The notes: generated from the letters alone by a model not told the origin. 27,243 nt of DNA from an uncultured archaeon (GCA_964577235.1 CAZNYH010000078.1:1-27243), one strand, 5' to 3'. Counted from the first letter of the stretch, positions 3,521 through 25,782 are shown. Numbers and translations are program-made.

Positions 3521-3814
3521 ATGATATGCAACGATGTACATTGCCCATATCATGGACATATTAAGGTTAGAGGGAAATTATTTGTGGGAAAAGTAATTTC
3601 AATAAAAAGGCATAAAACAGTAACAGTGCTAGTAGAACATATCAAAAAAATTCCCAAATATGAAAGATATGCCAGATACACTTCAAAAATTCATGCTCAC
3701 TTACCTCCATGTATAAAAGTAGAAGAAGGAGATATTGTGGAAATAGGAGAAACTAGAAAAATATCAAAAACCAAATCATTTGTAGTTTTAAGAGTACTAA
3801 AAAGAGGTGATTAA
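3521..3814 (+). CDS. rps17: 30S ribosomal protein uS17
   Basis: CPYHGHIKVRG, KYERY, HAHLPPCI, GETRKISKTKSFVV. Confidence 0.97.
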   Translation: MICNDVHCPYHGHIKVRGKLFVGKVISIKRHKTVTVLVEHIKKIPKYERYARYTSKIHAHLPPCIKVEEGDIVEIGETRKISKTKSFVVLRVLKRGD

Positions 3815-4213
3815 ATGAAAGCAATTTCAGCATCACCTGTAAAAGCAATTCAAGTTGGAACTATATTGGATTGCGCAGATAATAGCGGAGCTAGAAAGTT
3901 AAAAGTTATTGGAGTTTTGAGATACAAAGGAAGAAAAAGAAGACATCCTTGCGCTGGAGTTGCAGATGTAGTAATATGTTCAGTAATTGAAGGATCTCCA
4001 GATATTAGAAAGAAAAAAGTAAAAGCCATAATAATTAGACAAAAAAAAGAATATAGAAGAAAAGATGGAACTAGAATTTGTTTTGAAGACAATGCTGCAA
4101 TAGTTGTTAACGACAACTTTGATCCTATTGCATCTAAAATAAAAGGACCTGTTGCAAGAGAAGTTATTGAAAGATTTCCAAGTGTTGGAAGAAGAGCTTC
4201 GATGGTGGTTTAA
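3815..4213 (+). CDS. rpl14: 50S ribosomal protein uL14
   Basis: CADNSGARKL, RQKKEYRRKDG, FEDNAAIVV, KGPVARE; SD GAGGTGA at 3804-3810. Confidence 0.98.
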   Translation: MKAISASPVKAIQVGTILDCADNSGARKLKVIGVLRYKGRKRRHPCAGVADVVICSVIEGSPDIRKKKVKAIIIRQKKEYRRKDGTRICFEDNAAIVVNDNFDPIASKIKGPVAREVIERFPSVGRRASMVV

Positions 4214-4522
4214 ATGAAAAGCGCACAACCAAAAAAACAAAGAAAGTATTTGTATACTATGCCTTTACATAAAAGATGGCATTTATTTAATGCAAAAGTA
4301 TTCGATAAAGAAGGAAACAAACTTGGAAGAGATAGAATTAAAAAAGGAGTTTTAGTGAAAGTAATGCGAGGAAACTTTAAAGGACATATTGGAAAAGTTG
4401 TGAGAATAGATAGAAAAAAAGTAAGAGTTTATGTAGAAGGTTGTACAAGAAAGACCCAAAGAGGTACAGAAGTTTTAGTGCCAATTCATCCATCAAACTT
4501 ATGTATAATAAAAGGTGATTAA
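4214..4522 (+). CDS. rpl24: 50S ribosomal protein uL24
   Basis: QPKKQRK..PLHKR, KOW motif VKVMRGNFKG, PIHPSN. Confidence 0.96.
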   Translation: MKSAQPKKQRKYLYTMPLHKRWHLFNAKVFDKEGNKLGRDRIKKGVLVKVMRGNFKGHIGKVVRIDRKKVRVYVEGCTRKTQRGTEVLVPIHPSNLCIIKGD

Positions 4523-4523
4523 A

Positions 4524-5270
4524 ATGACAAGTATGGGCGGATCAAGACACTTAAAAAGGTTAGCAGCACCAAAATGTTTAAAAATAAAAAGAAAAGAATT
4601 TAAATGGATTATAAAACCATCTCCAGGACCTCATCCAAAAGATTTTTGTATTCCGTTGGGAGTTTTAATTAGGGATTATTTAGAATATGCTACCTGCTTA
4701 AAAGAAGTTAGATACATTTTAAATAAAGGATATGTTAAAGTTGATGGAACTGTTAGAAAAAGTTATAAATTTCCTGTAGGGATTTTTGATGTAATTGAAT
4801 TTGATAAGATAAATAAAACTTACAGAATAGTGGTTGATAAACATGAAAGGCTAATTCCAATAGAAATTCCTGAGAATGAAAAAACTATAAAAATTGGAAA
4901 AGTAATTAATAAACATACAGCAAAAGGAGGAAAAATTCAAATAACAACAAATGATGGAAGAAACTTTTTATTTGAAAAAACAGATTTAAAGCCTCATGAT
5001 GCTATTTTATATGAAGTTCCTTCCCAAAAAATAATAAAAGAAATTAAAATGAAAGAAGGAAATTTAGCATATATTTTATTTGGAGCATTTGCAGGCAAAA
5101 TTGGAAAAATTTTAGAAATTCATCCAGGGTCAATGACAAAACCCTGGATTGTAAAATTAGACGTAGGTGGGAAAGAAGTTTTCACTGTAAGAGATAAAAT
5201 AATTCCTATTGGAGAAAATACACCAGAAATTACAGTAGGTGATTTGAATGAATCCAATGAAACAAATTAG
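4524..5270 (+). CDS. rps4e: 30S ribosomal protein eS4
   Basis: HLKRLAAP, PSPGPH, VKVDGTVR, FPVGIFDVI. Start moved from GTG 4515 to ATG 4524 because AGGTGA (4513-4518) is the SD. Confidence 0.96.
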   Translation: MTSMGGSRHLKRLAAPKCLKIKRKEFKWIIKPSPGPHPKDFCIPLGVLIRDYLEYATCLKEVRYILNKGYVKVDGTVRKSYKFPVGIFDVIEFDKINKTYRIVVDKHERLIPIEIPENEKTIKIGKVINKHTAKGGKIQITTNDGRNFLFEKTDLKPHDAILYEVPSQKIIKEIKMKEGNLAYILFGAFAGKIGKILEIHPGSMTKPWIVKLDVGGKEVFTVRDKIIPIGENTPEITVGDLNESNETN

Positions 5271-5748
5271 AATTGAAAAAGTTACTGTAAATATAGGAGT
5301 TGGAAAAGATCTTGAAAGGTTAGAAAAAGCGAAAAAACTATTAGAAAGAATTACAGGACAAAAACCAGTAGAAACATTAGCAAAGAAAAAAATTAAACAA
5401 TGGGACATCTCAAAAGGAGATCCTATTGGAGTAAAAGTTACTTTAAGAGGAAAAAAAGCAGAGGAATTTTTAAAAGAAGTATTTCAAGCAGTAGATAAAT
5501 TAAGCAAAGATATGTTTTCAGATAGAAGTCTATCAATAGGCATAAAAGAGTATATTGAACTTCCAAGTGTAAAATATGATCCAGAAATCGGAATGTTTGG
5601 AATGGATGTTTGCATAACTTTTGAAAGGCCTGGATATAGAGTAATGAGAAGAAAGTTAAGAAAAACAAAAGTTGGAAAAAATCATAGAATAACTCCTGAG
5701 GAATGTATAGAATTTATAAGAGAAAAGTTTGGAGTGGTGGTTGAATGA
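5248..5748 (+). CDS. rpl5: 50S ribosomal protein uL5
   Basis: NPMKQIRIEKVTVNIGVG, PIGVKVTLRG, YDPEIGMFGMDV. Confidence 0.98.
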   Translation: MNPMKQIRIEKVTVNIGVGKDLERLEKAKKLLERITGQKPVETLAKKKIKQWDISKGDPIGVKVTLRGKKAEEFLKEVFQAVDKLSKDMFSDRSLSIGIKEYIELPSVKYDPEIGMFGMDVCITFERPGYRVMRRKLRKTKVGKNHRITPEECIEFIREKFGVVVE

Positions 5749-5993
5749 AACTGGAAGAATTAGCAAAATCACTTCCTAAAATAAAGAAAAAGAAAATACT
5801 TGAAAGATTACTCACTGGGAAAGGATTGAAAAAAAGAAGAAAAAAAGAAGCTAAATTTTTAGAAAGAGTTGAATCAAATAAAATAGTCTTTTGTAGAAGA
5901 TGTGGTACTCCAAAAGCAGTAATTAGAAAATATGGGCTATACTTATGTAGAAGATGCTTTCATCAAGAAGCTGAAAGAATGGGGTGGACATAA
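5745..5993 (+). CDS. rps14: 30S ribosomal protein uS14 (zinc-binding type) with a long basic N-terminal extension
   Basis: CRRCG..IRKYGLYLCRRCF; canonical position between uL5 and uS8. Confidence 0.92.
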   Translation: MKLEELAKSLPKIKKKKILERLLTGKGLKKRRKKEAKFLERVESNKIVFCRRCGTPKAVIRKYGLYLCRRCFHQEAERMGWT

Positions 5994-6385
5994 TGAAGCA
6001 AGATGCAGTGCATGATGGATTGATACAAATTAACAATGCTGCAAGAATAGGAAAAAAAGAGATACTTATAAATTTTGCATCTAAATTATTAATACAAGTA
6101 ATTGACGTAATGAAGAGATATGGCTATGTGGAAGATTATGAGCCAATACATATTTCACCGGAAATAATAAAAGTGAGAGTAGTCTTAAGCGGAAGAATTA
6201 ATGAATGTAAGCCAACAAAACCATATATGCCTGTAAAAGTTAAAAATCTACAAAAATATATTGAAAGACACCTTCCAGGGAGAGGTATTGGAATTTTAAT
6301 ACTTTCCACTCCCAAAGGAGTATTATCTCATGAAGAAGCAATTAAAGAAAATGTTGGAGGAATATTATTAGGATACGTATATTAG
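5993..6385 (+). CDS. rps8: 30S ribosomal protein uS8
   Basis: GRINEC, LSTPKGVLSHEEA, GGILLGYVY. Start set at ATG 5993 (TAATG overlap with uS14). Confidence 0.96.
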   Translation: MKQDAVHDGLIQINNAARIGKKEILINFASKLLIQVIDVMKRYGYVEDYEPIHISPEIIKVRVVLSGRINECKPTKPYMPVKVKNLQKYIERHLPGRGIGILILSTPKGVLSHEEAIKENVGGILLGYVY

Positions 6386-6394
6386 GTGAGAAAC

Positions 6395-6922
6395 ATGTAT
6401 ACTGTTGAAATACCTGAAAATGTGGAAGTAGAAATAAATTGGCCAAAAGTAACAGTAAAAGGACCAAAAGGAACTTTAGAAAGAGAATTTAATAATAGAG
6501 GAGTAGAAATAATTAAAGAAGAAAACAAACTTGTAGTAAAACCAATAAAAGAAAGGAGAAAATTCAAAGCGAATGCAGGAACAGTAGCAGCACATATAAG
6601 AAATATGATAATTGGAGTTACAAGAGGATGGAGATATATTTTACAAATACATTATACTCACTTCCCAATAAAAGTAGAAGTAAAAGGAAATGATATATAT
6701 ATAATAAACTATTTGGGAGAGAAACATCCCAGAAAAACATTCAAATATCCAGACGTTGAGGTTAAGATTCAAGGAGATAAAATTTATGTAGAAGGTATTA
6801 ATTTAGAACATGTAGCCCAAACAGCAGCAAACATTGAAAATCTTACAACACCTAAAAGATTGGATATTAGAAAATTCCAAGATGGGATTTACATAGTTGC
6901 AAGAAAGGAGGTAACTGAATGA
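6395..6922 (+). CDS. rpl6: 50S ribosomal protein uL6
   Basis: VTVKGPKG, GTVAAHIRNMIIGVT, HFPI, NYLGEK, FQDGIYI. ATG 6395 follows SD AGGTGA at 6384-6389. Confidence 0.97.
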   Translation: MYTVEIPENVEVEINWPKVTVKGPKGTLEREFNNRGVEIIKEENKLVVKPIKERRKFKANAGTVAAHIRNMIIGVTRGWRYILQIHYTHFPIKVEVKGNDIYIINYLGEKHPRKTFKYPDVEVKIQGDKIYVEGINLEHVAQTAANIENLTTPKRLDIRKFQDGIYIVARKEVTE

Positions 6923-7305
6923 TGATTAAAAAAGGGAAGTTAAAAAAAAGAAAAGTTCCTGACTTTGTGAGAATTATAGGCCCTAATAGAAGATCAAAAC
7001 CAGGACTGGATCCATATACATGGAGAAGACCAAGAGGTAAAAGAGCAAATAAACGATTAAAATTAAAAGAAGCAGGACCTGTTCCATCAATTGGATACAG
7101 ACAACCAAAAGAAGTGAGAGGATTACATCCTAGCGGATATAAAGAGATTTTAGTTTATAATCCAAAAGACTTAGAAAAAATAAATCCAGAAAAAGAAGCA
7201 GCAAGAATAGCTTCATGTGTAGGATTAAAAAAGAGAATAGAAATTATGAGAAAAGCTAAAGAATTAGGAATAAAAGTTTTGAATCCATTGAGGGGGGTTG
7301 AATGA
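6919..7305 (+). CDS. rpl32e: 50S ribosomal protein eL32
   Basis: WRRPRG, PSIGY, RGLHPSGY, VGLKKRIEI. Confidence 0.96.
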   Translation: MMIKKGKLKKRKVPDFVRIIGPNRRSKPGLDPYTWRRPRGKRANKRLKLKEAGPVPSIGYRQPKEVRGLHPSGYKEILVYNPKDLEKINPEKEAARIASCVGLKKRIEIMRKAKELGIKVLNPLRGVE

Positions 7306-7733
7306 AAGACTTGAGGAACTTAATTGCTAGAACTTTAGGAGTTGGAAAAAAGCGAATTAAAATATTAAACCCTAACGCAAAAATTACAACTAGACAAGAA
7401 GTAAAAGAAGCCTTAAAGCGAGGAGATATAGAAATTGTACAAATAAAAGGACAATACGGACATGCTGCAAAGATAAGAAGAATCCAAAAGAAAAAAGGTA
7501 GAAGAAGAGGATTAGGAAGAAGAAAAGGTAAAAAAACAGCAAGAAAATCCAAAAAAGAAGCATGGATGAGACAAATTAGAGGAGTTAGGAAATATTTAAG
7601 AAAATTAAGAGACTCTGGTATTATAACCAGAAAAGAGTATAGAAGATTATATATGCTTGCAAAAGGAGGATATATAAGAACTAAAAGAGCTGTAAAAGAA
7701 ACTTTAGAACTAATTAGAAGAGGTGCTCTATAA
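7302..7733 (+). CDS. rpl19e: 50S ribosomal protein eL19
   Basis: [41 protein letters not shown]. Confidence 0.97.
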
Positions 7734-8299
7734 TGAAATTAAAAAGAATCAGAGAAGGAAAGACAAATTATAAGAAAAGATATAAACTAGTTTTATCAGG
7801 CAAACCAAGACTTGTAGTTAGGAAGAAAAATAATTTAATAATAGCTCAAATAGTAGAATATAACCCAAAAGGAGATAAAGTACATGTCACTTTAACAACA
7901 AGGCATTTAAGAAAGTTGGGATATAAAGGGCATTTAAATAATCTCCCAGCAGCATATTTGTTAGGTTATTATATTGGAAAAATAGCAACTAAAAAAGGAT
8001 TTAATGAAGTTATCTTAGACATTGGATTACATACTCCTCATCATGGAGGAGCATTATTTGCTGTTTTAAAAGGTGCTGTTGATGCTGGAATGAAAATCCC
8101 TCATGATGAAGTTTGCCTTCCTTCAGAAGAAAGAATAAGAGGAGAACATATTAAAAATTATGCTCTATTATTAAAAGAACAAAATCTAGAAAAATACAAA
8201 AAGCAATTTTCAAAATATTTAGAAAGAGGCTTACCTCCTGAAAATATAGTAGAGCATTTTGAAGAAATAAAATCTAAAATTGACGAGGTGACTAAATGA
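7733..8299 (+). CDS. rpl18: 50S ribosomal protein uL18
   Basis: [37 protein letters not shown]. Confidence 0.97.
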
Positions 8300-8985
8300 G
8301 TTTACCTTCAATAAGTAAAATTGTAATTCAAAAAATTACTAAGAACTATGTTAATGTTGAAGAATGGGAACCAAAAACAGAATTGGGTAGAAAAGTCTTA
8401 GAAGGAGAAATAACTTCTTTAGATGAATTATTTACCCAACCAATAAGATACAGAGAACCTGAAATAATTTTAAAACTATGCCCTGATTTTTACTTCTCAA
8501 TACTAGATAAGGGAATTACTGTAAGAGTAACCGATAGTGGTAGAAGAAACTCTTTTCAAGTATTTAGCGTAGTTGGAAACCTAAACGGATATGTGGGATT
8601 AGGAATGGGAAAAGGAAAAGATATATTAACAGCAATTCATAAAAGTGTCAGAGATGCTTTATTAAACTTAATAAAAGTAGTGAGGGGGTGTGGTAGTTGG
8701 CAATGTGGATGTAATACTCCACACTCAATACCATTTAAAGTATTTGGAAAATGTGCTGCATCCAAAATTTGGTTATTACCAGCTCCTAAAGGAACAGGAT
8801 TGGTTATAGGAGATAAAGGAAAAGTGGTTTGTGCACTAGCAGGGATTAAAGATATTTGGAGTAGATCTATTGGAGAAACAAGAACTACAATGAATTACTG
8901 TGGAGCAATATTAGATGCTTTAAAGAAAACATATTATAATAAATATTCAGAAGAAGATCTAAAGAAAGTAGGTGGTAAAATATGA
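8296..8985 (+). CDS. rps5: 30S ribosomal protein uS5
   Basis: [39 protein letters not shown]; about 20 extra N-terminal residues. Confidence 0.97.
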
Positions 8986-9437
8986 TTTATGCCGTAGTTT
9001 TAATAAGAGGATTGGTTGGTGCTCCCCAACCAATAATTGATACATTAAAAATGCTAAATTTAACAAGAAAAAACCATTGTTCACTAGTAAAAAAAGAAAA
9101 TGAAGGTATGTTAAAAAAAGTAGAAGCTTACATTACTTATGGAGAAATAGATGAAGAAACTTTAAAAAAACTAATATTAAAAAGAGGGAGACTTCCTGGT
9201 GACAAAAGAGTTGATGAAGAATATTTTGAAGAATTTGGAGGAATAGACTCAGTAGTTAAGGAATTGATAGAGGGAAAGAAAAAATTAAAGGATTTTGGAT
9301 TAAAACCAATATTTAGATTGCATCCTCCAAGAAAAGGATTTGAACGAAAAGGAATTAAAAAATTTTATAGAGAAGGAGGAGCTTTAGGATTTCGACCAAA
9401 AGAAGCAATGATAGATTTATTAAATAGAATGATGTAG
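8982..9437 (+). CDS. rpl30: 50S ribosomal protein uL30 (long archaeal form)
   Basis: AVVLIRG, TLKMLNL, YITYGEID, FRLHPPRKG, GGALG. Confidence 0.96.
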   Translation: MIYAVVLIRGLVGAPQPIIDTLKMLNLTRKNHCSLVKKENEGMLKKVEAYITYGEIDEETLKKLILKRGRLPGDKRVDEEYFEEFGGIDSVVKELIEGKKKLKDFGLKPIFRLHPPRKGFERKGIKKFYREGGALGFRPKEAMIDLLNRMM

Positions 9438-9445
9438 GTGATTTA

Positions 9446-9841
9446 ATGGTAGTAAGACATAGAAAAAAGTATAGAAAAAGATTAGGAAGCAGAACATACC
9501 ATGGGGATACTAAAAATAGAAGAGGAGCAGGATGTAGAGGAGGAAGAGGAAAAGCAGGGTCAAGGTCGGGTCATAAATCAAGAATATTTAAAGTAGGGGC
9601 TGAATACAGACTAAAACCAAAGAGAAAATACATAGCCGCAATTAACATTGAAGAACTTGAAAAATTAAGTGAAAAGTTAAATACTAATGAAATTAATTTA
9701 ACTCAACTAGGGATAGAAAAATTATTAGGAAAAGGAAAAATAACTAAACCAATAAAAGTAATAGTAAAAAAAGCCTCAAAAAAAGCAATTGAAAAAATTC
9801 AAGAAGTTGGTGGAGAAGTTATAACGGAGGCGACTGAATGA
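9446..9841 (+). CDS. rpl15: 50S ribosomal protein uL15
   Basis: RRGAGCRGGRGKAG, IN, KLLGKG, ASKKAIEKIQEVGG. Confidence 0.96.
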   Translation: MVVRHRKKYRKRLGSRTYHGDTKNRRGAGCRGGRGKAGSRSGHKSRIFKVGAEYRLKPKRKYIAAINIEELEKLSEKLNTNEINLTQLGIEKLLGKGKITKPIKVIVKKASKKAIEKIQEVGGEVITEATE

Positions 9842-11229
9842 TGTTGTCATATTTTTTGGCAGTAATATTTTTGTCTATTTTGATGGCAATTTTAGCATAT
9901 AGATATGATATTTTCGAATTATTGGGTCGTTTATTACCTTCTGTTAAACCTCCAAAAAGAGTTCTATCTTTGGATGAAAGGGTTTTTTGGACAGCAATTG
10001 TGATAATATTGTATTTTGTCTTAGGTGCTGTAATTCCTATTGGGTTTAATTTGGAGGCTCCCAGAGCCAAAGAATTAGAAATACTCTCAATAATATTTGC
10101 ATCTAGATTAAATAGTGTTTTGGCATTAGGAATTAGTCCAATTATAGTGGCGTATATTTTAGTCCAACTTTTTGTAGGATCTAAAATAATTCCATTAAAT
10201 TTAGCAGACCCTAAAGACAGAGCAAAATATTCTACTATTGCAAAAGGATTTGCAGTTGTACTTTGTTTTGTAGAAGCAGCAATTTGGGTTCTTGGTGGGA
10301 GAGTTCCTACTATTCCAGGAATGGAGATGTTAGTTATAACTCAAATTGCTTTAGGATCTATACTTTTATTGTATTTAGATGAACTTACAACAAAATATGG
10401 AATATATTCAGCAATTTCACTATTCATTGCAGCAAATGTTTCTCAATCTTTAGTTGCTAGAGGTATTCACGCTTTTGGAGAAATTATTAATTACTATATG
10501 AATCAAGAATTTTTGTTAATGTTAGTTCCTGCCACTTCTATATTGGTGACTATAGGGGTGTTTTTATTAGTTTGTTATCTAGAAAGTATGTATGTGATTG
10601 TCCCTATAATAATAGATTTCACCCAAGCAGCTATGAGTAGAGGATTTCCCTTAAGATTGCTTTATGTTTCGAATATTCCAATTATTTTTGCAGCAGCCAT
10701 ATTTAGTTTAATAATGGTATTTTCTCAAAACTTTCACTATAAAGTATTTTACGATTTCTTTTCCCCACCTGGTTTTAAAATGGGAGAATATAATTTCCCT
10801 GCAATGTTAGAAATGATATTTTCAGGAAATATAGATATTTATTACATTTTTATGACTATTTTACATATGGTGTTGTATTCAATAGGTCTTATTGGATTAG
10901 CAATTATATTTGGACTTTTATGGGTTGATGTTTCTGGACAAGGTCCTGAAGGTATTGCGGAACAATTAATTGCAAGTAGAGCAGGTATTCAGGGAGTTAG
11001 AAGAAATAAAGAACTAATATTAAGAATTCTCAGACAGTATATTCCACCTTTAGTGTTTGTTGGATCTATTTTGGTAGCAATTTTAGCAGCCATAGCAGAT
11101 TGTTTTGGAGCTTTGGGTAGTGGTACTGGTATTTTATTAGCAGTATCTATAATATGGAATGTAGTCAATTTGTTCAAACAAATGCAAATATTAGAGAAAT
11201 ATCCACAATTGAGTAAAATAATATTTTAG
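9838..11229 (+). CDS. secY: Preprotein translocase subunit SecY (Sec61 alpha)
   Basis: LGISPII, ELTTKYGI, SLFIAAN, LLYVSNIP, GSGTGILLAV; multiple transmembrane segments; follows uL15. Confidence 0.96.
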   Translation: MMLSYFLAVIFLSILMAILAYRYDIFELLGRLLPSVKPPKRVLSLDERVFWTAIVIILYFVLGAVIPIGFNLEAPRAKELEILSIIFASRLNSVLALGISPIIVAYILVQLFVGSKIIPLNLADPKDRAKYSTIAKGFAVVLCFVEAAIWVLGGRVPTIPGMEMLVITQIALGSILLLYLDELTTKYGIYSAISLFIAANVSQSLVARGIHAFGEIINYYMNQEFLLMLVPATSILVTIGVFLLVCYLESMYVIVPIIIDFTQAAMSRGFPLRLLYVSNIPIIFAAAIFSLIMVFSQNFHYKVFYDFFSPPGFKMGEYNFPAMLEMIFSGNIDIYYIFMTILHMVLYSIGLIGLAIIFGLLWVDVSGQGPEGIAEQLIASRAGIQGVRRNKELILRILRQYIPPLVFVGSILVAILAAIADCFGALGSGTGILLAVSIIWNVVNLFKQMQILEKYPQLSKIIF

Positions 11230-12818: not shown

Positions 12819-13298
12819 ATGATAATAACTACCTCTAAAAAACCAGGAAGGAAAACCAGAGCATTTTGTAGAGAATTATCTCTTGTACTACCCACAGCAA
12901 GATACATTTTAAGAGGAAAAAAAGCGCTAGTTGATGTTATTAATATGGATGAAAAAGTGTTAGTAATAGATGAATTAAAAGGAAACCCTTCAAGAATTAG
13001 AGTTTTCATTAATGGAATTTGGAAATTTTCTATATTAATTAAAGGAGTTCAACTTCAACATGAATTACTTAAGAAGAGAATTTCGTTAAATGCATTTGGT
13101 AGTTTTTCAAGAGATAAATATTTAAATATTGCTTTTGGAGAAGGATTATATGATGACTTAGTAGAGGTAAAAATAATGAACAACAAAGTAGGATTTTATT
13201 ATGATAATAATTTTTATCCTCCTTATTTTAAAATAAGGCGAATAAAAAGTCCTGATGGAACTACTATAAAGGAATATCTACAGGTTCAATCAAAGTAA
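12819..13298 (+). CDS. Brix-domain (Imp4-like) ribosome biogenesis protein
   Basis: IITTSKKPGRKTRAFCREL, YILRGKK, ELKGNPSRI. Confidence 0.88.
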   Translation: MIITTSKKPGRKTRAFCRELSLVLPTARYILRGKKALVDVINMDEKVLVIDELKGNPSRIRVFINGIWKFSILIKGVQLQHELLKKRISLNAFGSFSRDKYLNIAFGEGLYDDLVEVKIMNNKVGFYYDNNFYPPYFKIRRIKSPDGTTIKEYLQVQSK

Positions 13299-13548
13299 TT
13301 TTCTCTCCAACCAACAACATTCCTTCTGAGTAAATTCCCTTTATCTTTTTTGGTTCTATGTTATACAAAAACAAACATTCTTTGCCTAAAATTTCCTCTT
13401 TTTTTAAATGTTCCTTGATTCCAGCAATTATTGTTTTAATTTCTCCCCCAAAGTTTACTTGTAGTTTATATAATTTATCTCCAAAATCCTCAACTTTTTC
13501 AATTTTGCCCCATTTTAATTTTAGTTTTAAAAAACTATCTTTGTACAT
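13264..13548 (-). CDS. Stand-alone tRNA-binding OB-fold protein (MetRS C-terminal / Trbp111 / CsaA-like)
   Basis: GKIEKVE, KLYKLQVNFG, TIIAGI, NIEPKKIKGIYSEGMLL; SD AAGGTGA upstream. Confidence 0.9.
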   Translation of the reverse strand: MYKDSFLKLKLKWGKIEKVEDFGDKLYKLQVNFGGEIKTIIAGIKEHLKKEEILGKECLFLYNIEPKKIKGIYSEGMLLVGEKITLIEPVDIPL

Positions 13549-13551
13549 AAC

Positions 13552-13579
13552 ATCACCTTTTTTTATAAAGGTAATTATT
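13552..13579 (-). promoter_or_regulatory. SD-masking hairpin / 17-nt shared element upstream of the tRNA-binding protein gene
   Basis: On -: ATTACCTTT-ATAAAA-AAAGGTGAT, 9 bp with one G-U; AATAATTACCTTTATAA is identical to 25328-25344. Confidence 0.5.
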
Positions 13580-13583
13580 TTTA

Positions 13584-14408
13584 ATGAGGATATTGCTATT
13601 TATAACAGTATTTATAACAATATGTTTTGCGTTTCCTTTTTTTAACACAAAAAAAATTTGGATTTATGAAGTTAATGGTGTAATTGGTAAAGATGTGTTG
13701 CCTAAAGATTTAAAACCTATAATTGATAAATTAGAAAAAGACAGAGATGTAAAATATTTCGTGTTAAAAATTAGTTCTCCAGGAGGAGGCGTTGTAGATT
13801 CATTTGAAATTTATCATATGCTAAAATCGTTAAAATTAAAACGCCCAGACTTAAAAATAGTCGCTTATATTTATAGAGGAGGATATTCAGGAGCCTATTT
13901 GATTTCATTAGGAAGTGATGAAATTGTTTGCCACCCAGGATCATCTTTGGGAAGTATAGGGGTGATTGGAAGTTTCATCTCATTAAAAGAGTTATTTAAA
14001 AAAATAGGAATACAAACTTATGTAATGCGAACTCCTGAAACCAAGGCGTATCCTACAATTTATGATGATTTGAATCAAGAAAAACTAGAAGAATTATATA
14101 GACCATTGATTAAATATTATTATAATATTTTCCTAAATACAGTTAGAAAAGAAAGACATATTAATCCAGAAAGATATGCTGGAAAAATATATTCTTGTTT
14201 AGAGGCGGTTGAATACAAACTTGCTGATAGACAAATGTATTATTACCAATTTATTGAATATTTAAAAGAAAAATTAAAAAGAGAAGGATACAATCCTGTT
14301 GTAGAAAATGTTACTCCTAAAAAAGATTGGTTTGAGGAAATGTTTGGAGAGGTGTTTACATGGTTAAAGTATATATTTGTGGGTCCACAATTGAGTATGA
14401 TGACTTGA
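13584..14408 (+). CDS. sppA: S49-family signal peptide peptidase (SppA-like)
   Basis: N-terminal hydrophobic anchor, ISSPGG, GYSGAYLIS (catalytic Ser region), GSIGV, ETKAY (Lys). Confidence 0.85.
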   Translation: MRILLFITVFITICFAFPFFNTKKIWIYEVNGVIGKDVLPKDLKPIIDKLEKDRDVKYFVLKISSPGGGVVDSFEIYHMLKSLKLKRPDLKIVAYIYRGGYSGAYLISLGSDEIVCHPGSSLGSIGVIGSFISLKELFKKIGIQTYVMRTPETKAYPTIYDDLNQEKLEELYRPLIKYYYNIFLNTVRKERHINPERYAGKIYSCLEAVEYKLADRQMYYYQFIEYLKEKLKREGYNPVVENVTPKKDWFEEMFGEVFTWLKYIFVGPQLSMMT

Positions 14409-17956: not shown

Positions 17957-18015
17957 TAATTACTTTAAAAAAGCAGAAACTTAATATTTTAATGATTAAA
18001 AGAGAATGGTGCAAA

Positions 18016-19233: not shown

Positions 19234-19424
19234 GATTCACCCCTCTCTTTAAGTATCGTTTTCACCCTTGCTATTATTTTTTTAATATTCTTTGTTATAC
19301 TAGATTTTTTTTGAGGTGTTGTTAACTCCTTCCTCAATTCATTGTATGCTTGATTCAGAATCTCCTTCAGTTCTTCTGTCTTCATTTCCCTCAACTTCTC
19401 CGGCTTGTAATCTTTTGGCTTCAT
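19230..19424 (-). CDS. rpl29: 50S ribosomal protein uL29
   Basis: LREMKTEEL, IKKIIARVKTILKE; perfect SD GGAGGTG before ATG 19424, inside the rps3 coding region. Confidence 0.9.
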   Translation of the reverse strand: MKPKDYKPEKLREMKTEELKEILNQAYNELRKELTTPQKKSSITKNIKKIIARVKTILKERGES

Positions 19425-20013
19425 CTATTACACCTCCTAAATCAATAGTATCTACCGTGTTTAAATCAGGAGGTACTATATATACTTTTACTCCAATTAT
19501 TCCTGATTTTGTTAAGGCAGTATCAAAACCTCTACTTACTAATTTTGCATACCCTCCTGTTTTAATCATATATCCTGCCGTGAATCTCCTAGTAATAGAT
19601 CTTGCTCCTTTTTTCCCTAATTTTCCTGAAATTACTACTTCTATACCTTTTGCCCCTGCATTTAATACTCTATTTATAATTCTTCTAACTACAGCTCTTT
19701 CTCTTTCTCCTCTTTCTAAAGCTCTTGCAATTCTTGCTGCTTGAATTTGTGCATCTAATAATTCGTTTTCCACTAATTTAACAAATACTCTGACTTCATC
19801 TTTTAGCATGTTTTTTAAATCTTCTATTACTTTTCTTATTGTATCTTTGTTAGCTATTACTCTTGGTCTTCTACACCAAACAAAAATTCTATATTCTGTT
19901 ACGGTTCTCACTAAATCTACTCTTGAAATAAGAGCTTCTGGGAATTCTCTTTTGAAATAGTCTTCTACTATCAGTTTTTTTACACCTTCATCAACAAATT
20001 CTCTTTCTTTCAT
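19339..20013 (-). CDS. rps3: 30S ribosomal protein uS3
   Basis: KH domain, LDAQIQA, GAKGIEVVISGKL, RGFDTALTKSGIIGVKV. Confidence 0.96.
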   Translation of the reverse strand: MKEREFVDEGVKKLIVEDYFKREFPEALISRVDLVRTVTEYRIFVWCRRPRVIANKDTIRKVIEDLKNMLKDEVRVFVKLVENELLDAQIQAARIARALERGERERAVVRRIINRVLNAGAKGIEVVISGKLGKKGARSITRRFTAGYMIKTGGYAKLVSRGFDTALTKSGIIGVKVYIVPPDLNTVDTIDLGGVIDEAKRLQAGEVEGNEDRRTEGDSESSIQ

Positions 20014-20447
20014 TCTCTCACCCCTAAGATAATTCTTAAGTGAGTTCTTTTTTTAACTCTTGTTAAATTTCTAAATGCATGTCTTTTATAATAAATCAAT
20101 CCAGTTCTTCTAATATTTATTATTTTTTGTCCTTTTCCTACCCAAACTTCTTTTATATATAATTTCCCTTCAATTCCTTGGTTTTTAGCATTGTTTAGTG
20201 CTTGTTTTATTAGTTTTATAAAGTATTTTGCTACTTTAACTGGATATCTTCCAGATTTCACTCCTTCTTTAACTCCTTTTCTATGCGCCACTTTTTTGTT
20301 ATATCTTTTTATTGGAATCCATTCTTTTAGTTTTATTACATCTTCTAAAATTTTTAATGCCTTATCTACATCTTTACCTTTAATATATCTTCCTACTTCT
20401 ACAGCAAACTTTCTAGATATAGGAGCATTTTTAATCATGGCTATCAT
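20010..20447 (-). CDS. rpl22: 50S ribosomal protein uL22
   Basis: PISRKFAVEV, VAHRKG, GRYPVKVA, THLRIIL. Confidence 0.96.
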   Translation of the reverse strand: MIAMIKNAPISRKFAVEVGRYIKGKDVDKALKILEDVIKLKEWIPIKRYNKKVAHRKGVKEGVKSGRYPVKVAKYFIKLIKQALNNAKNQGIEGKLYIKEVWVGKGQKIINIRRTGLIYYKRHAFRNLTRVKKRTHLRIILGVRE

Positions 20448-20455
20448 TCAATCAC

Positions 20456-20893
20456 CTACTTTCCTACATGTCTTGTACTTCTGGATGCTCCTTGTCCAAA
20501 TCCTCCGTGAGCTACTTTCTTTCTAGTTGGGACAAATTCTCCTAGTCTGTGACCTAACATTTCTGGTTTTATTTCAACAGGAACGAATTCTTTTCCGTTG
20601 TGTACATATATTGTCATTCCTACCATTTGTGGCAATATTGGCATACTTCTATAATGGGTTTTAATTTTCTTTTTAAATGGTTTTCCTTCTTTCATTGCTT
20701 GCCATGCTTGAGCAATTTTTATTATTAATTTTCTCGCTTTTTGATCAGTATTTATTTTTTTAATCAATCTTAATATACTTCTTCTTATTCTCGCAGGACA
20801 CAATTTAGCAAATTCTTCCAAATCCATTTGTTGAAGTTGCTCTAAAGTATAGCCTCTAAACGTAAATTTTTTAGGTTTACCTTCATATTCCAC
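20456..20893 (-). CDS. rps19: 30S ribosomal protein uS19
   Basis: [38 protein letters not shown]. Confidence 0.97.
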
Positions 20894-20897
20894 TTAA

Positions 20898-21614
20898 TCA
20901 CCTCTTCTTTCTTCCAGTTCTTCTTGCTGCTATATGGCCAACTTTCCTTCCAGGTGGTGCGTTTCTTGAAACACACGTTGATTTCCCAGGATGATGTTCT
21001 TTCCCTCCAAATGGGTGTGATGCTGGAACCATATGCACTCCTCTTACTTTTGGATAATATTTGTTTCTTGCTTTACAAAAGTGGAATTTCTTTCCTGCTT
21101 TCATAAATGGTAATTCCGTCCTTGCTCCACCTGCTATGTTTCCAATTATAGCATAGCATTCTGGGTCCAACTCTACTGTTCTTCTTGATGGGAGGGTTAC
21201 ATAAACACATTCTTCTGATTTTGCGCTTACTAACGCATAAGTACCAGATGTCCTTGCTAGTTTTCCACCATCAAATGGAACTTTTTCTATGCAACATATA
21301 GGAGTACCTTCAGGGATTTTTTTCAATGGCAATATGTTCCCAATTTTAATTTCAGCCTCTTCTCCTATTTTGATTTTTTGTCCAACCTCCAACCCTTCTA
21401 CTGCTGGAATATAATACTTTTCACCATTTTCTAAAGTAATTTCAGCTACTGGATATAATCTAGCTCTATCATCTATTAAGTCAGTTACTTCTCCTATTAT
21501 AGTTCCCTCTTTTGGGTGTGGAAGGCATATTTTTGGTACTTTATAATGATGGTCTGGTACTCTAAACACATTACTTCCTTTTCCTAATCTTTGGACTAAA
21601 ATTTTCTTACCCAT
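20898..21614 (-). CDS. rpl2: 50S ribosomal protein uL2
   Basis: QRLGKG, DGGKLARTSG, GGARTELP, KVRGVHM..HPFGG, PPGRKVGHIAARRTG. Confidence 0.98.
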   Translation of the reverse strand: MGKKILVQRLGKGSNVFRVPDHHYKVPKICLPHPKEGTIIGEVTDLIDDRARLYPVAEITLENGEKYYIPAVEGLEVGQKIKIGEEAEIKIGNILPLKKIPEGTPICCIEKVPFDGGKLARTSGTYALVSAKSEECVYVTLPSRRTVELDPECYAIIGNIAGGARTELPFMKAGKKFHFCKARNKYYPKVRGVHMVPASHPFGGKEHHPGKSTCVSRNAPPGRKVGHIAARRTGRKKR

Positions 21615-21623
21615 ATAACCACC

Positions 21624-21893
21624 TCATATTGGAATTCCTAACATTCTTCCTATTTCCATAGCATCTTCAGGATTTTCCATTCTAACATATGCTTTCTTTA
21701 TAATTTTTTTTCTAAATCTGGTTATAGCAGTATTTACTTTTTTTACTTTTTTTCCATATAATTTTTCTATAGCTTCTTTTATTTGTGGTTTTGTAGCATT
21801 TAAAGGCACTTCAAAAGTGATAATTCCTTTACCTAACAAATTATAGGTTTTTTCAGTAAGTATGGCTCTAATTATTATTTTTTGATAATCCAT
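21624..21893 (-). CDS. rpl23: 50S ribosomal protein uL23
   Basis: TEK, TFEV..ATKPQIKEAIE, VKKVNT, KKAYV. Confidence 0.95.
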   Translation of the reverse strand: MDYQKIIIRAILTEKTYNLLGKGIITFEVPLNATKPQIKEAIEKLYGKKVKKVNTAITRFRKKIIKKAYVRMENPEDAMEIGRMLGIPI

Positions 21894-21897
21894 CTAA

Positions 21898-22701
21898 TCA
21901 CCCCGTGAATAAATTGTATAGTTTTTCTATTGCTCCTTCTGTCCATACAGTTAACCTTCCTGGTTGTCCTCCAGGTGCTAACACTTCTGCATTTAATTTA
22001 TCTACACTTACCACATCTACTCCTTCTAAATTTTTAACTGCTTTAATTAAAGGGCATTTACCACTTACTACAAATAAAATACTTTTCTTTCTTTTATATT
22101 TTCTCCCTCTTCTTTTTCCTTTTCCTGCTCTTACTCTTTTTTTACTCATTGCATATTCAATATCTTCCCATATTCTTAGTTTTTTTAGTAAATCCCTTAC
22201 TTCTTTAGTTTTTGATATTTTTTCATATTCTTTATCTATAATTATTGGTAATTCTATATCTTCAGGGATTTTGTGTCTTTCTAATATTAGTTCTTTAACA
22301 GCTGTTGCTGCAATTGCACTTCTAATTGCTTTTCTTCTTTCTTTTTTGTTTATTTTTTCATAAATTTTCTTTTCTACTTTTGGAGGATGCGCTACTGGCC
22401 CTCCTACTGCTTGAGGTACGTTAGCAACGAATCCTCTTACTGGGTCATTATCAATGTGTTTTGTTCTTGGTAGTCTATTTAATCCCCTTGTCATAGCACA
22501 TCTAGGATCATCTCTTCTTCCAATATATTCTGCGGTATAATCTCTTCCTGCTTTTGGTCTTACTCCTTTTGGTTGAAATCTATGAGTCCAAATTGCAATT
22601 ACTGCTCTCCTTATTAAATCTGGTCTAACTTCTTCTTCAAAGTGGGGAGGCAACTCTATTTCTTTCCACTCTCCGTTTATAGTATATACTTTTGCTTTCA
22701 T
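21898..22701 (-). CDS. rpl4: 50S ribosomal protein uL4
   Basis: RPDLIRRAV, GGPVAHPP, INKKERR, RAGKGKRRGRKY, LAPGGQPGRLTVWT. ATG 22701 overlaps the uL3 stop (ATGA), SD GAGGTG. Confidence 0.97.
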   Translation of the reverse strand: MKAKVYTINGEWKEIELPPHFEEEVRPDLIRRAVIAIWTHRFQPKGVRPKAGRDYTAEYIGRRDDPRCAMTRGLNRLPRTKHIDNDPVRGFVANVPQAVGGPVAHPPKVEKKIYEKINKKERRKAIRSAIAATAVKELILERHKIPEDIELPIIIDKEYEKISKTKEVRDLLKKLRIWEDIEYAMSKKRVRAGKGKRRGRKYKRKKSILFVVSGKCPLIKAVKNLEGVDVVSVDKLNAEVLAPGGQPGRLTVWTEGAIEKLYNLFTG

Positions 22702-23666
22702 ACATTGCACCTCACAAATTGTCTTGCACTATCAATATATTCTATTCTCTCAATTGCTCTTAATTTTCCTTTTCTAACTGGAAATCTCATTCCAATTAAT
22801 CTTTTTTGAGGTCCTGGCACTGAGCCTAAAATTATTACATAATCATTTCTGATTACTCCATAATGTGGCCATCCTGATTTAGGATTTATGTTAAGTTCTT
22901 TTGGGTTCGAAATTAAAACAATTTGCTTATTAAATTCTGTCCTAGTATGGTATCCCATTTGTCCAGGCATTGGAACAGTCCACATTGTGTATCCAGGAGT
23001 AAATTGACCAATTGCTCCTACGCCTCTTTTGGTTTTATCTTTTATATGACTAAAGTCAAATACTCCGAATCTTTTCACTGCCCCTTGAAATCCTTTACCT
23101 TTAGCAACTGCTTTAACATCAATTAATTGATTATTATTGAATACATCTGAAACTCTTATTTCTTTACCTAATAATTCAAAAGCTTTTTGCTTTTTTTCTT
23201 CTAGATTTCCTCCCAACGCTATTTCGACAACTTCACATTTTTTCTTTCCAATGGTAGTCAATTTTGGTTGAGTACAACAAATTATCCTAACTTCATCAGC
23301 GTTTTCTAAAATCTTTTCAAAATCTTCTTTATTGTGTTCTTTTTTAATTTTTGGAATTCTTCTAAATATTTCTTTTGGCAAATTAGTTGTCCAAAATTCT
23401 CCTAATGTTTTTAATCCTAATTTTGTCTTTTTATATGCTCTAATTGCAACTACTTTCATAGGAGGGCATTCAATTATAGTTACGGGATAACAGTATTCCT
23501 TAATTTCTTTTCCTACTTTTTCTTTTACTAATATATGAGTCATCCCTACCTTGTATCCATAAAATGCTAATGGTTTACATTCTTCTACTTTTGGCCATGA
23601 TTTAAATCTTGGAGTTTCTGTTTTCGCTCTCTTTCTAGGATAATATGCCATTGATCCTCTTCTCAT
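22698..23666 (-). CDS. rpl3: 50S ribosomal protein uL3
   Basis: AYYPRKRA, GYKVGMTH, PVTIIECPP, KGKGFQGAVKRFG, GQMGYHTRTEFNK, GSVPGP. ATG 23666 follows SD GAGGTGA; the ORF-track start at 23720 is rejected. Confidence 0.97.
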   Translation of the reverse strand: MRRGSMAYYPRKRAKTETPRFKSWPKVEECKPLAFYGYKVGMTHILVKEKVGKEIKEYCYPVTIIECPPMKVVAIRAYKKTKLGLKTLGEFWTTNLPKEIFRRIPKIKKEHNKEDFEKILENADEVRIICCTQPKLTTIGKKKCEVVEIALGGNLEEKKQKAFELLGKEIRVSDVFNNNQLIDVKAVAKGKGFQGAVKRFGVFDFSHIKDKTKRGVGAIGQFTPGYTMWTVPMPGQMGYHTRTEFNKQIVLISNPKELNINPKSGWPHYGVIRNDYVIILGSVPGPQKRLIGMRFPVRKGKLRAIERIEYIDSARQFVRCNV

Positions 23667-23786: not shown

Positions 23787-23858
23787 TGGGGCCGCTGGGA
23801 ATCGAACCCAGGACCTCCGCCTCGTCAGGGCGGCGTCATACCACTAGACCACGGCCCC
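23787..23858 (-). tRNA. tRNA-Val(GAC), intronless, CCA not encoded
   Basis: GGGGCCG acceptor stem, D arm GTCTAGTGGTATGAC, anticodon arm CCGCC-CTGACGA-GGCGG, T arm CTGGG-TTCGATT-CCCAG, discriminator A; 72 nt. Confidence 0.97.
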
Positions 23859-23918: not shown

Positions 23919-24617
23919 ATGACATTAAAAGCCAAGGAAATTAATAGTTTTTTTCCATATTTCGAAGTGTTAAGATCAACTGCTAAATACAGGGAAATAA
24001 TAGAAAAAATTCATAAATATTCTGGAAAAAATAATATTATTGAATTTTGTGAGTGGTGTTTGAAAAATGAAAAAATTGTGAACAAATATACTAGGGCAAA
24101 GTATTTGCTTACAGCATGTAAATGGATAATAAACAATCAAGAAAAAGTTGAAGAAATAATAAATAAATATAAAAATGTTCGATTTCCTGAAATAATGAAT
24201 CTCCCACATAAATGGGTTATTATTATTTTGCAACATTTTGGGTTTTTAGAGATTACAGAAAATGGTTTAAGGGAACGAATTATACACAGAGTGTATGTAA
24301 AAGCATATAGAAAAAATCCTAATATTAAAGTTAAAAATAAATTTGACCAACTATTAGAGTACTTATCTCAAAATAATGATAAAGTTTCTAATCACTTGCG
24401 TAGAATAATTCAAGGAGAATTATATTTTGAAGAGTTTAAAATATTACTCAAAGAAGGCGTTTTGGAGATAAGTCATGTATCATTATCATACCAATTATTC
24501 AGAATTTTGAGAAAATTTGGATTCGTAGAATTAGAGAGATGGTCTCTAGGCAGAGTTAGAGTATACTTAACAGATAAAGAAGAATTTAAGAAATTATTTA
24601 GAAACTTAAATCCCTAA
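23919..24617 (+). CDS. Hypothetical protein (232 aa), possibly tandem winged-helix
   Basis: Two related motifs IILQHFGFLEI and RILRKFGFVEL; the second is followed by a wing-like RVRVYLTD. Confidence 0.6.
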   Translation: MTLKAKEINSFFPYFEVLRSTAKYREIIEKIHKYSGKNNIIEFCEWCLKNEKIVNKYTRAKYLLTACKWIINNQEKVEEIINKYKNVRFPEIMNLPHKWVIIILQHFGFLEITENGLRERIIHRVYVKAYRKNPNIKVKNKFDQLLEYLSQNNDKVSNHLRRIIQGELYFEEFKILLKEGVLEISHVSLSYQLFRILRKFGFVELERWSLGRVRVYLTDKEEFKKLFRNLNP

Positions 24618-24624
24618 TATTATT

Positions 24625-25278
24625 ATGAAAGAAGTTCAGGAAATAACATCTGCACTTTCAAATTATTACAAATCTATTTTAAAATTGTGGGCTACATTAA
24701 ATGAAATAGAATCTATAGAAAAGTTAAAAAATAATTTTATGGATGATTATTTTGAGTTGAAAAGGCACAAAGATAAGGAACTATTTGAATCTTTATATTT
24801 AACATTTGAATATAGAGACACTATTTTAGACTTATCTAAAAACTCAAAAGAAAAATGTGAAAAAATAATTTCTATTTTGGAAGAAATAAAAACATCCTTA
24901 GAAGATATAATTTCCACATTAGAAGAAAAAAATCCCAACATTATAATTGAAGACCCTCTATCTATTGACTTGGGAAAATTAGAAGATTTATTTAAAGAAG
25001 ACTATATTGAGGTAAAACCAGTAATTTTTAGCGAAAAAACTATAAATTTGTTATTAGAATTTCCAAATAGTAAAAGAAAAGAATTTTCAGTGATAATTCC
25101 AAAAAAATCATTGAAAGATATAATTTTGTTTTGCTTTTCAAATAAATTAGGAGTTTTTGTAGAAGGTTCAGAATTGAGAATGTATATAAATCCTTACGCA
25201 AACATATTAAAGATAGAAAGTGACAAAAAAGAGGTGATTTTACGCACTTTAAAGAAGAAGAAAATCATAAAAAAATAG
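24625..25278 (+). CDS. Hypothetical protein (217 aa), N-terminal helical/coiled-coil region and C-terminal alpha/beta region
   Basis: Long ORF 7 nt after the previous gene; heptad-like E/K/L-rich N-half; no family recognised. Confidence 0.6.
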   Translation: MKEVQEITSALSNYYKSILKLWATLNEIESIEKLKNNFMDDYFELKRHKDKELFESLYLTFEYRDTILDLSKNSKEKCEKIISILEEIKTSLEDIISTLEEKNPNIIIEDPLSIDLGKLEDLFKEDYIEVKPVIFSEKTINLLLEFPNSKRKEFSVIIPKKSLKDIILFCFSNKLGVFVEGSELRMYINPYANILKIESDKKEVILRTLKKKKIIKK

Positions 25279-25327
25279 CCCTAATATATACTTTAGGATG
25301 TATATGTTTAATAATATTTATTTATGC

Positions 25328-25353
25328 AATAATTACCTTTATAAGGTGATTAT
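25328..25353 (+). promoter_or_regulatory. SD-masking hairpin upstream of rps19e
   Basis: ATAATTACCTT-TAT-AAGGTGATTAT: 11 bp (one G-U), ending immediately before ATG 25354. Confidence 0.55.
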
Positions 25354-25782
25354 ATGAATATATTCGATGTGCCAGCAGACAAATTAATAGAAGAAGCAGC
25401 AAAAGAATTAGAAAAAAAGATTGAAATGCCAGAATGGGCATTTTATGTAAAGACAGGTCCACATAAAGAACACCCTCCGGTTCAAGACAATTGGTGGTAC
25501 ATCAGGGCTGCTTCAATATTAAGAAGGCTATATAAATTTGGAAGACCTATTGGAATTCAAAGATTAAGGAAATTTTATGGTGGAAGAAAAAATTACGGAA
25601 CTGCCCCAGAACATAAAGTAAAAGGTTCAGGAAAAATTGTGAGAACAATATTACAACAATTAGAACAAGTAGGATATGTTAAAAAAGTTCCAGGTGGAAG
25701 AATAATAACTCCAGCAGGAAAATCTTTTCTAGACAAAATTGCTTCAAAAATATGGAGGGAAATGAATGAAGCCAAATCTTGA
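25354..25782 (+). CDS. rps19e: 30S ribosomal protein eS19
   Basis: PEWAFYVKTG, NWWYIRAASILR, YGGRK, GSGKIVRTILQQLE, GRIITPAG. Confidence 0.97.
   Translation: MNIFDVPADKLIEEAAKELEKKIEMPEWAFYVKTGPHKEHPPVQDNWWYIRAASILRRLYKFGRPIGIQRLRKFYGGRKNYGTAPEHKVKGSGKIVRTILQQLEQVGYVKKVPGGRIITPAGKSFLDKIASKIWREMNEAKS

Follow-up and report, generated by a model that had tools for sequence, protein, structure and literature searches.

An identical 17-nt word precedes the Shine-Dalgarno (SD) sequence of two translation-related genes, one for ribosomal protein S19e (site 1) and one for a free-standing tRNA-binding domain protein (site 2), in a 27,243-nt stretch of DNA from an uncultured archaeon (GCA_964577235.1 CAZNYH010000078.1:1-27243; the whole stretch is referred to as the window). 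At both sites, a complementarity of 8-9 nt exists between the word and the SD next to it, and the combination of shared 17-mer and SD-masking pattern is real, statistically unusual in its context and unlikely to be chance. The reading preferred here, held tentatively at a probability of about 0.38, is that both leaders may contain an SD-sequestering hairpin. According to this model, the anti-SD-like AUUACCUU, which in both leaders precedes the SD (A)AAGGUGAU at a distance of 3-6 nt, would in the mRNA pair intramolecularly with the SD, compete with the 30S subunit and lower translation initiation. This model rests on the inference that the mRNA includes the left arm, that cells at >=80 °C contain the folded hairpin and that translation is affected by it.

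The window has a GC content of 29 % and harbours ~45 tightly packed genes, leaving a non-coding share of only 3.6 %. It contains two ribosomal-protein clusters, SecY, RpoN and tRNA-Val (Table 1); the archaeal ribosomal-protein superoperon is split and inverted, with its halves ~8 kb apart. Two divergent gene pairs are separated by spacers of exactly 35 nt (13549-13583 and 17957-17991), and in both spacers the TATA-like element of each gene abuts or enters the start of its neighbour, representing extreme promoter compaction. Near-identical or identical sequences were seen in several deep-sea hydrothermal-vent metagenomes; the samples underlying ERR2021503, ERZ23491583 and JGI 3300007771 contain this population. 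The best-scoring matches of uL2 were the archaeal ribosome entries 9sra, 4v4n/4v6u and 6skf, of which 4v4n, 4v6u and 6skf are presumably those of Methanocaldococcus, Pyrococcus and Thermococcus, respectively. The PolD DP2 subunit is encoded on the extended scaffold, where the large-subunit (DP2) fragment (L263, 18256-19689, past the window start) carries LAGLIDADG/Hom_end (intein) signatures and adjoins an assembly gap with duplicated flanks. The lineage is isolated, its best genuine S19e relatives being 67 and 63 % identical. The IVYWREL fraction of the encoded proteins amounts to 0.457 in a sample rich in ribosomal proteins, a value that by the linear relation of Zeldovich and co-workers reportedly corresponds to ~93 °C, as read from this ribosomal-protein-rich sample. 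Together with the GC-rich tRNA-Val, this fraction points to a hyperthermophilic host, and the source archaeon is accordingly predicted to be a hyperthermophile.

Table 1 Coordinates of the features discussed (negative positions are counted from the ATG of the respective gene)
Feature	Position	Strand	Details
17-mer, copy 1	25328-25344	+	AATAATTACCTTTATAA, anti-SD-like core ATTACCTT; exact match to copy 2
Site-1 hairpin	25329-25353	+	ATAATTACCTT-TAT-AAGGTGATTAT; arms 25329-25339 and 25343-25353, loop 25340-25342
S19e gene	25354-25782	+	PF01090, E = 2.7e-52
S19e-led cluster			S19e, dsDNA-binding (PDCD5-like) protein, 61-aa gene, L31e, aIF6
Upstream ORF	25298-25357	+	19 codons, MYMFNNIYLCNNYLYKVII; crosses hairpin, stop overlaps S19e start (ATGA)
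Conserved block upstream of S19e	25284-25335 (52 nt); L254 555-607	+	TAGGATGTAT...ATATTTATTTAT..A.TAATTA
S19e promoter candidate TATATA	25285-25290 (-69)	+	TTTATA aligned in relative
S19e promoter candidate ATATTTATTTAT	25314-25325 (-40 to -29)	+	conserved in relative
17-mer, copy 2	13563-13579	-	in 35-nt divergent spacer 13549-13583
Site-2 hairpin	13552-13575	-	left arm 13575-13567 AUUACCUUU, loop 13566-13561, right arm 13560-13552 AAAGGUGAU = SD
Gene for free-standing tRNA-binding domain protein	13264-13548	-	94 aa; PF01588, E = 1e-16
tRNA-binding-domain promoter candidate TTAAAA	-36	-	in 35-nt spacer; predicted start ~-8 to -10
Two perfect TATA-consensus boxes TTATAAATA	13617-13609, 13605-13597 (-69, -57)	-	within 5' coding part of divergent peptidase gene
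Loose third copy TAATTAC-TTTAAAA	17957-17970	+	-35 to -22 of ATG of SD-less T2SSF gene, BRE/TATA position; no hairpin
tRNA-Val(GAC)	23787-23858	-	69 % GC vs 29 % GC of genome
L3-L4-L23-L2-S19-L22-S3, then SUI1 gene	19339-23666	-	
S17-L14-L24-S4e-L5-S14-S8-L6-L32e-L19e-L18-S5-L30-L15-SecY	3521-11229	+	

Copy 1 of the word is located in a 75-nt intergenic region (25279-25353). The sequence-only reading had described here an 11-bp stem that buries the SD and ends at the S19e AUG; its sequence, coordinates and fold were all found to be correct. The stem includes one G-U and only 2 G-C pairs, and the SD GGTGAT (25345-25350) lies inside its right arm, followed by the ATG of S19e at 25354. The left arm had likewise been proposed to mimic the 16S anti-SD; AUUACCUU departs from the inferred 16S tail AUCACCU by one U opposite G. 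In ViennaRNA, the hairpin by itself (25 nt) reached -8.8 kcal/mol and a 41-nt stretch -10.7 kcal/mol (z = -3.7, equalled by 0 of 200 shuffles). The longer fold includes, at 37 °C, a further helix outside the stem (25320-25325 with 25354-25359), by which the AUG is covered too. The N-terminus of the S19e protein, MNIFDVPADKL, fits the conserved (V/I)(Y/F)DVP of its homologs, so the ATG is the true start. Within the S19e-led cluster, the 61-aa gene has no Pfam match and is by its position in the operon L39e.

At site 2, the predicted fold consists of a 9-bp stem and a 6-nt loop (-8.5 kcal/mol, z = -2.5). The second copy was indeed found where it had been reported (13579-13563, minus strand), but it does not stand directly before the SD as had been stated: five extra A's intervene, followed by GGTGAT-GTT-ATG. 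The best PDB match of the 94-aa protein is the methionyl-tRNA synthetase (MetRS) C-terminal domain, followed by Trbp111. Its only database relatives are a 99 % identical strain copy and one 50 % homolog, the latter adjoining a MetRS gene within a MetRS operon. Both copies thus precede translation genes, as proposed, i.e., S19e (PF01090) and the MetRS-C-terminal-like tRNA-binding-domain gene (PF01588). A 159-aa ORF (12819-13298) convergent with the tRNA-binding-domain gene shares 35 nt (13264-13298) with the 3' end of the latter. On the other side of the spacer, the S49 peptidase gene comprises in its initial codons a tandem 12-nt repeat (TGTTATAAATAC twice, minus strand, 13597-13620) encoding FITVFITI; read on the opposite strand, this repeat yields the two perfect TATA-consensus boxes directed towards the tRNA-binding-domain gene. 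An interpretation of the site-2 palindrome as two divergent SDs, with AAGGTAAT serving the peptidase, was rejected: its AGGT is positioned at -15 (usual, -10 to -12) and its core contains a mismatch.

Across the whole window, 3 independent pairs of exact repeats of >=17 nt were detected compared to a mean of 1.24 in dinucleotide shuffles, and 60 % of the whole-window shuffles hold at least one such pair, in agreement with the earlier rough estimate of about one expected 17-nt match. The two other repeats (18 and 17 nt; 5442-5459/12908-12925 on the plus strand and 16966-16982/24670-24686) are both coding and consistent with chance. Restricted to intergenic DNA, however, a shared word of >=17 nt was obtained in only 1 of 300 dinucleotide shuffles, and the next-longest word common to the real intergenic regions measures 10 nt. 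The sequence-only reading had stressed the location of both copies in the scarce intergenic DNA; there, the pair is an outlier. In addition, both copies agree in orientation and in the 3-nt spacing from SD to ATG, and inspection of the regions upstream of rps17 and rpl3 bore out that these lack the word. A chance or historical duplicate without selected function (e.g., a copied leader module) that lies in an AT-rich spacer and complements a common SD is, in view of the intergenic null, the translation-related nature of both genes and the agreement in orientation and spacing, somewhat unlikely yet plausible; the whole-window expectation and the two other repeat pairs in coding DNA speak in its favour.

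The frequency of the word elsewhere also bears on this explanation. Over ~36 kb of the genome, made up of the window and 8.4 kb of additional scaffold, the word occurs twice exactly and once in loose form, without further copies in the scaffold part; this small number favours an absence of function, as does the choice of the feature after the fact, and it counts against the hairpin. The loose pattern, which was fitted post hoc, has 3 matches versus 0.01 expected. The loose copy at 17957 was discarded as a significant occurrence in its own right, since an equally loose match appears in 16 % of shuffles. A genome collection searched with TTACCTTTATAA-N(0-6)-GGTGAT returned at least 118 matches in unrelated bacteria (this organism was absent among the matches listed), and a metagenome scan with the exact 17-mer returned at least 120 unrelated contigs, with 3 of the matches listed preceding an SD-like word. 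The two counts conform to a word without function; as chance background, they are uninformative on the remainder of the genome.

For the 27 SD-led genes of the window, we computed how probably the SD core is paired. Provided that the hairpins are transcribed, the SDs of S19e and the tRNA-binding-domain gene rank first and second of 27 in masking at 60-80 °C, and first and third at 37 °C. The probability of the SD being paired is 1.0, 0.94, 0.70 and 0.38 at site 1 and 0.98, 0.84, 0.62 and 0.38 at site 2 (37, 70, 80 and 90 °C, respectively), the ViennaRNA parameters being extrapolations at 60-90 °C; the minimum-energy structure of site 1 is open from 80 °C upward. With SD and start codon kept fixed and the upstream 30 nt drawn from a Markov model of the window's intergenic DNA, random upstream sequences achieved equal masking at 70-80 °C in 0.2-0.4 % of trials for S19e and in 1.7-1.8 % for the tRNA-binding-domain gene, the two p-values not being independent because the same word is present in both. 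These values (p ~0.002-0.02 per site) argue against a word without function; like the intergenic p-value, they stand without correction for the open-ended discovery of the feature.

According to the modelled folds, the AU-rich stem would melt between ~60 and 90 °C, so that masking would be strong at temperatures under the growth range and partial at growth temperatures, i.e., thermometer-like; alternatively, a bound factor might stabilise or relieve the hairpin. In its most specific form, this idea envisages a thermometer-like throttle, in which the 17-nt module closes both SDs outside the niche of 80 °C and above and reopens them on return, thereby making, if true, the production of translation components dependent on temperature through RNA; this form is regarded as quite improbable. 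Structured RNAs of hyperthermophiles are normally GC-rich (PMC3849170), and an AU-rich stem with 2 G-C pairs in a predicted hyperthermophile consequently counts against the hairpin and for an absence of function. Marginal helix stability is, on the other hand, what a thermosensor would need.

Two properties of the paired sites are informative on the kind of element involved. Loop and 5' flank are identical as well (17 of 17 nt), a match that the stem does not call for and that weighs against the hairpin; it implies either common descent of the two leaders or sequence-specific recognition. The pairing tolerates a 5-nt insertion (loops of 3 and 6 nt), and an RNA stem therefore suits better than a fixed dimeric operator: the distance between the centres of the TTACC and GGTGA half-sites amounts to 12 bp at site 1 and to 17 bp at site 2, a difference of about half a helical turn. 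This variable spacing speaks against a palindromic operator of a dimeric factor. The DNA operator put forward as an alternative in the sequence-only reading is thus disfavoured in its palindromic form but keeps its standing as a non-palindromic word.

In a wider version of this alternative, the 17-mer would be an untranscribed core-promoter or operator word between TATA box and start near the SD, to which the basal machinery or a non-palindromic repressor binds, and the hairpin potential would be a by-product of the adjoining SD. Archaeal repressors usually bind between the TATA box and the start site, which is compatible with such a role. In the archaeal core promoter, the TATA box (TTWTAW) is centred ~26-27 bp upstream of the start and preceded by an A-rich BRE (PMC5316973). 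The 17-mer contains the consensus hexamer TTATAA together with an AT-rich 5' part (PMC5316973, PMC4247193). Moreover, TTTATAA is intergenic in 7 of 44 occurrences and ATAATTAC in 3 of 6, corresponding to an over-representation relative to the 3.6 % intergenic share, and the loose third copy, though non-significant by itself, occupies precisely the place of the BRE/TATA before an SD-less gene.

Promoter geometry was derived from the window's own genes. The tRNA-Val promoter is a textbook one, CGAAAAA-TA-TTTAAATA (BRE/TATA, CGAAAAATATTTAAATA), and its TATA box begins 31 nt ahead of the 5' end of the mature tRNA; the same box also faces a divergent SD-less gene at 23919. In two SD-less genes, TTATAA or TTTAAA starts at -28 from the ATG, while the SD-led first genes S17, L3 and orf275 possess TATA-like boxes at -39, -45 and -53. 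The boxes at 39-45 nt before the ATG in SD-led first genes imply leaders of 11-17 nt, as in Thermococcus (PMC5316973), which is in line with an untranscribed word. In Thermococcus, the TATA box is located at -30 to -20 and the SD ~6 nt from the start site, and SD-using hyperthermophiles have a median leader of 11-16 nt (PMC5316973, PMC4247193); ribosomal-protein mRNAs of the Thermococcales belong to the long-leader class (PMC4247193, PMC3849170). Measured against this geometry, the hexamer of the 17-mer is found at -15/-20, i.e., 8-13 nt nearer to the start than the TATA boxes of SD-less genes and >=19 nt nearer than those of SD-led genes. It would thus be downstream of the start of any SD-containing mRNA, and a BRE/TATA promoter of the own gene was rejected. 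Further, the upstream TTACC is no A-rich BRE, unlike that of tRNA-Val, at site 1 a promoter on the opposite strand would find no divergent gene to transcribe, and a promoter role leaves the complementarity of 8-9 nt to the SD unexplained. Taken together, a DNA element is considered distinctly unlikely.

The position of the transcript start is decisive for the hairpin, and the candidates allow both outcomes. From TATATA at -69, a ~40-nt leader holding the whole S19e hairpin would result. From ATATTTATTTAT, which has the 10-mer ATTTATTTAT in common with the S17 promoter region, the mRNA would start at ~-10, at the SD, leaving the left arm outside the transcript; such a start fits the median leaders of 11-16 nt of SD-using hyperthermophiles (PMC5316973, PMC4247193). 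At site 2, the candidate TTATAAATA boxes would give starts at ~-29 or -41, and the mRNA of the tRNA-binding-domain gene would then begin with the left arm or close to it; the same 9-mer constitutes the TATA-like element 28 nt before the SD-less RpoN gene (3459). No run of >=5 T was observed between S19e and its two co-oriented upstream genes. Since archaeal termination relies on oligo-T runs, read-through mRNAs, if made, would carry the whole hairpin. The locus was absent from three small metatranscriptomes of the same study.

Strain contigs from eight samples are 99.8-100 % identical without a SNP at any site, and with every strain copy identical no stem covariation was found. Only one relative is informative, a 28 % GC organism from the same vents with a 63-64 % identical S19e (L254-L256). 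It shares the 52-nt block upstream of S19e (Table 1), with an alignment score of 52 compared to a shuffle mean of 25.5 (sd 4.5, maximum 46; 0 of 1000 shuffles as high) and an ungapped identity of 42/54 versus 70 % for the S19e coding sequence and 57 % for third codon positions. The block spans both S19e promoter candidates, stops within the left arm just before CC and probably represents a promoter plus regulator site or a conserved leader. In the relative, AAA replaces the ACC of the anti-SD core while A.TAATTA is kept, the SD (GGAGGT) sits ~26 nt farther on and is unpaired in every predicted fold, and an all-AU palindrome occupies the homologous place in a different register, clear of the SD. 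With the core replaced and the SD unpaired, SD masking is not conserved at such distance, which counts, as weak evidence from a single relative, against the hairpin. The loss of core and masking conforms to a word without function, the more so as the relative's own palindrome indicates that such AU palindromes arise readily here. The DNA element also gains, as A.TAATTA is conserved at a fixed distance from ATATTTATTTAT and the ACC core is not. Conservation in relatives, which the sequence-only reading had named as a refuting test, is accordingly split: the upstream block is kept, the ACC core and the masking are not.

Other relatives contribute little. Those with 67 and 61 % identical S19e are GC-rich and have unrelated upstream regions, the 67 % one appearing leaderless. 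An apparent 81 % S19e homolog (L007; JGI 3300006083 contig) was dismissed as an assembly chimera of an AAA-ATPase-like N-terminus, the central part of the present S19e and the S19e C-terminus of the P0004 organism. The relative's ortholog of the peptidase next to site 2 is N-terminally truncated and has a different neighbour.

A further explanation applies to site 1 only and invokes the 19-codon upstream ORF, whose translation would melt the hairpin and let the ribosomes initiate again at S19e. This ORF is present with its ATGA overlap, and at site 2 (minus strand) a 31-codon GTG ORF reads the 17-mer in the same frame as the site-1 upstream ORF (NNYLYK) and stops within the SD; sharing one of two open frames is, however, unremarkable, and a 19-codon open frame is not rare (roughly estimated at ~15 % per frame). 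The site-1 ORF moreover has no properly spaced SD (an AGG abuts its ATG), and neither peptide nor arrangement is conserved in L254, where the ORF ends 47 nt before S19e and all five amino-acid differences are non-synonymous. Such coupling is very improbable.

Compared to known systems, the two predicted hairpins resemble fourU, ROSE and other anti-SD/SD hairpins in being short, in standing before the start codon and in pairing the SD with a pyrimidine-rich strand. An SD-complementary upstream strand in a stable local stem, the hallmark of this generic type, was found at both sites (stems of 11 and 9 bp). The masking strand differs from those of fourU and ROSE, as it consists of ACCUU, which nearly reproduces the 16S anti-SD, with neither a U4 run nor UYGCU. 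Membership in either family was therefore rejected: the strand is AUUACCUU(U), with the G's of the SD pairing with C, C and U rather than with a U4 run, and a ROSE thermometer (multi-hairpin 5' UTR, UYGCU anti-SD, bulged G) found no Rfam match. Overall, Rfam searches, ROSE families included, gave no match at gathering score in the window, nor any with E up to 10 for 25230-25420. Reminiscent of bacterial RNA thermometers are the G-U and many A-U pairs, the marginal stability and the modelled melting across the inferred physiological range; unlike these, the present host is archaeal and a predicted hyperthermophile, and the hairpin is an unconserved one known from modelled folds. The literature searched contained no report of a natural archaeal RNA thermometer.

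Bacterial ribosomal-protein leaders contain rRNA-mimic operators, e.g., those for S15, L20 and L1. They share with the S19e leader the placement of a structured element over the ribosome-binding site of the operon's first gene. The element studied here also occurs before a gene for a non-ribosomal protein, which autoregulation through one ribosomal protein does not predict.

Few cases of cis-acting control of translation are documented for archaea; those found here are the L7Ae k-turn and the fluoride riboswitch (PMC5539422, PMC8241225), the latter the only experimentally determined natural archaeal riboswitch (PMC8241225). If the preferred hairpin reading is true, bacterial-style SD occlusion would work in archaea at extreme temperature and govern ribosomal-protein synthesis, and a small part for the engineering of thermophiles would become available; its present value is that of a lead, i.e., a statistically odd candidate in an uncultured lineage without close relatives. 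L7Ae of Sulfolobus acidocaldarius binds a k-turn in its own 5' UTR next to the SD, which it is proposed to mask (PMC5539422). Like the S19e leader, this leader combines a hyperthermophilic archaeon, a gene of the translation apparatus and a short element beside the SD (PMC5539422). The L7Ae system requires a protein-bound k-turn (3-nt bulge plus tandem G-A pairs; PMC5539422), which is absent here, and a k-turn/L7Ae operator was rejected because both stems are continuously Watson-Crick or G-U paired, without a bulge or GA/AG tandem. In further contrast to L7Ae, the SD itself is one strand of a plain stem, and one word serves two unrelated genes. By analogy, the L7Ae k-turn leader is the nearest archaeal precedent for SD masking.
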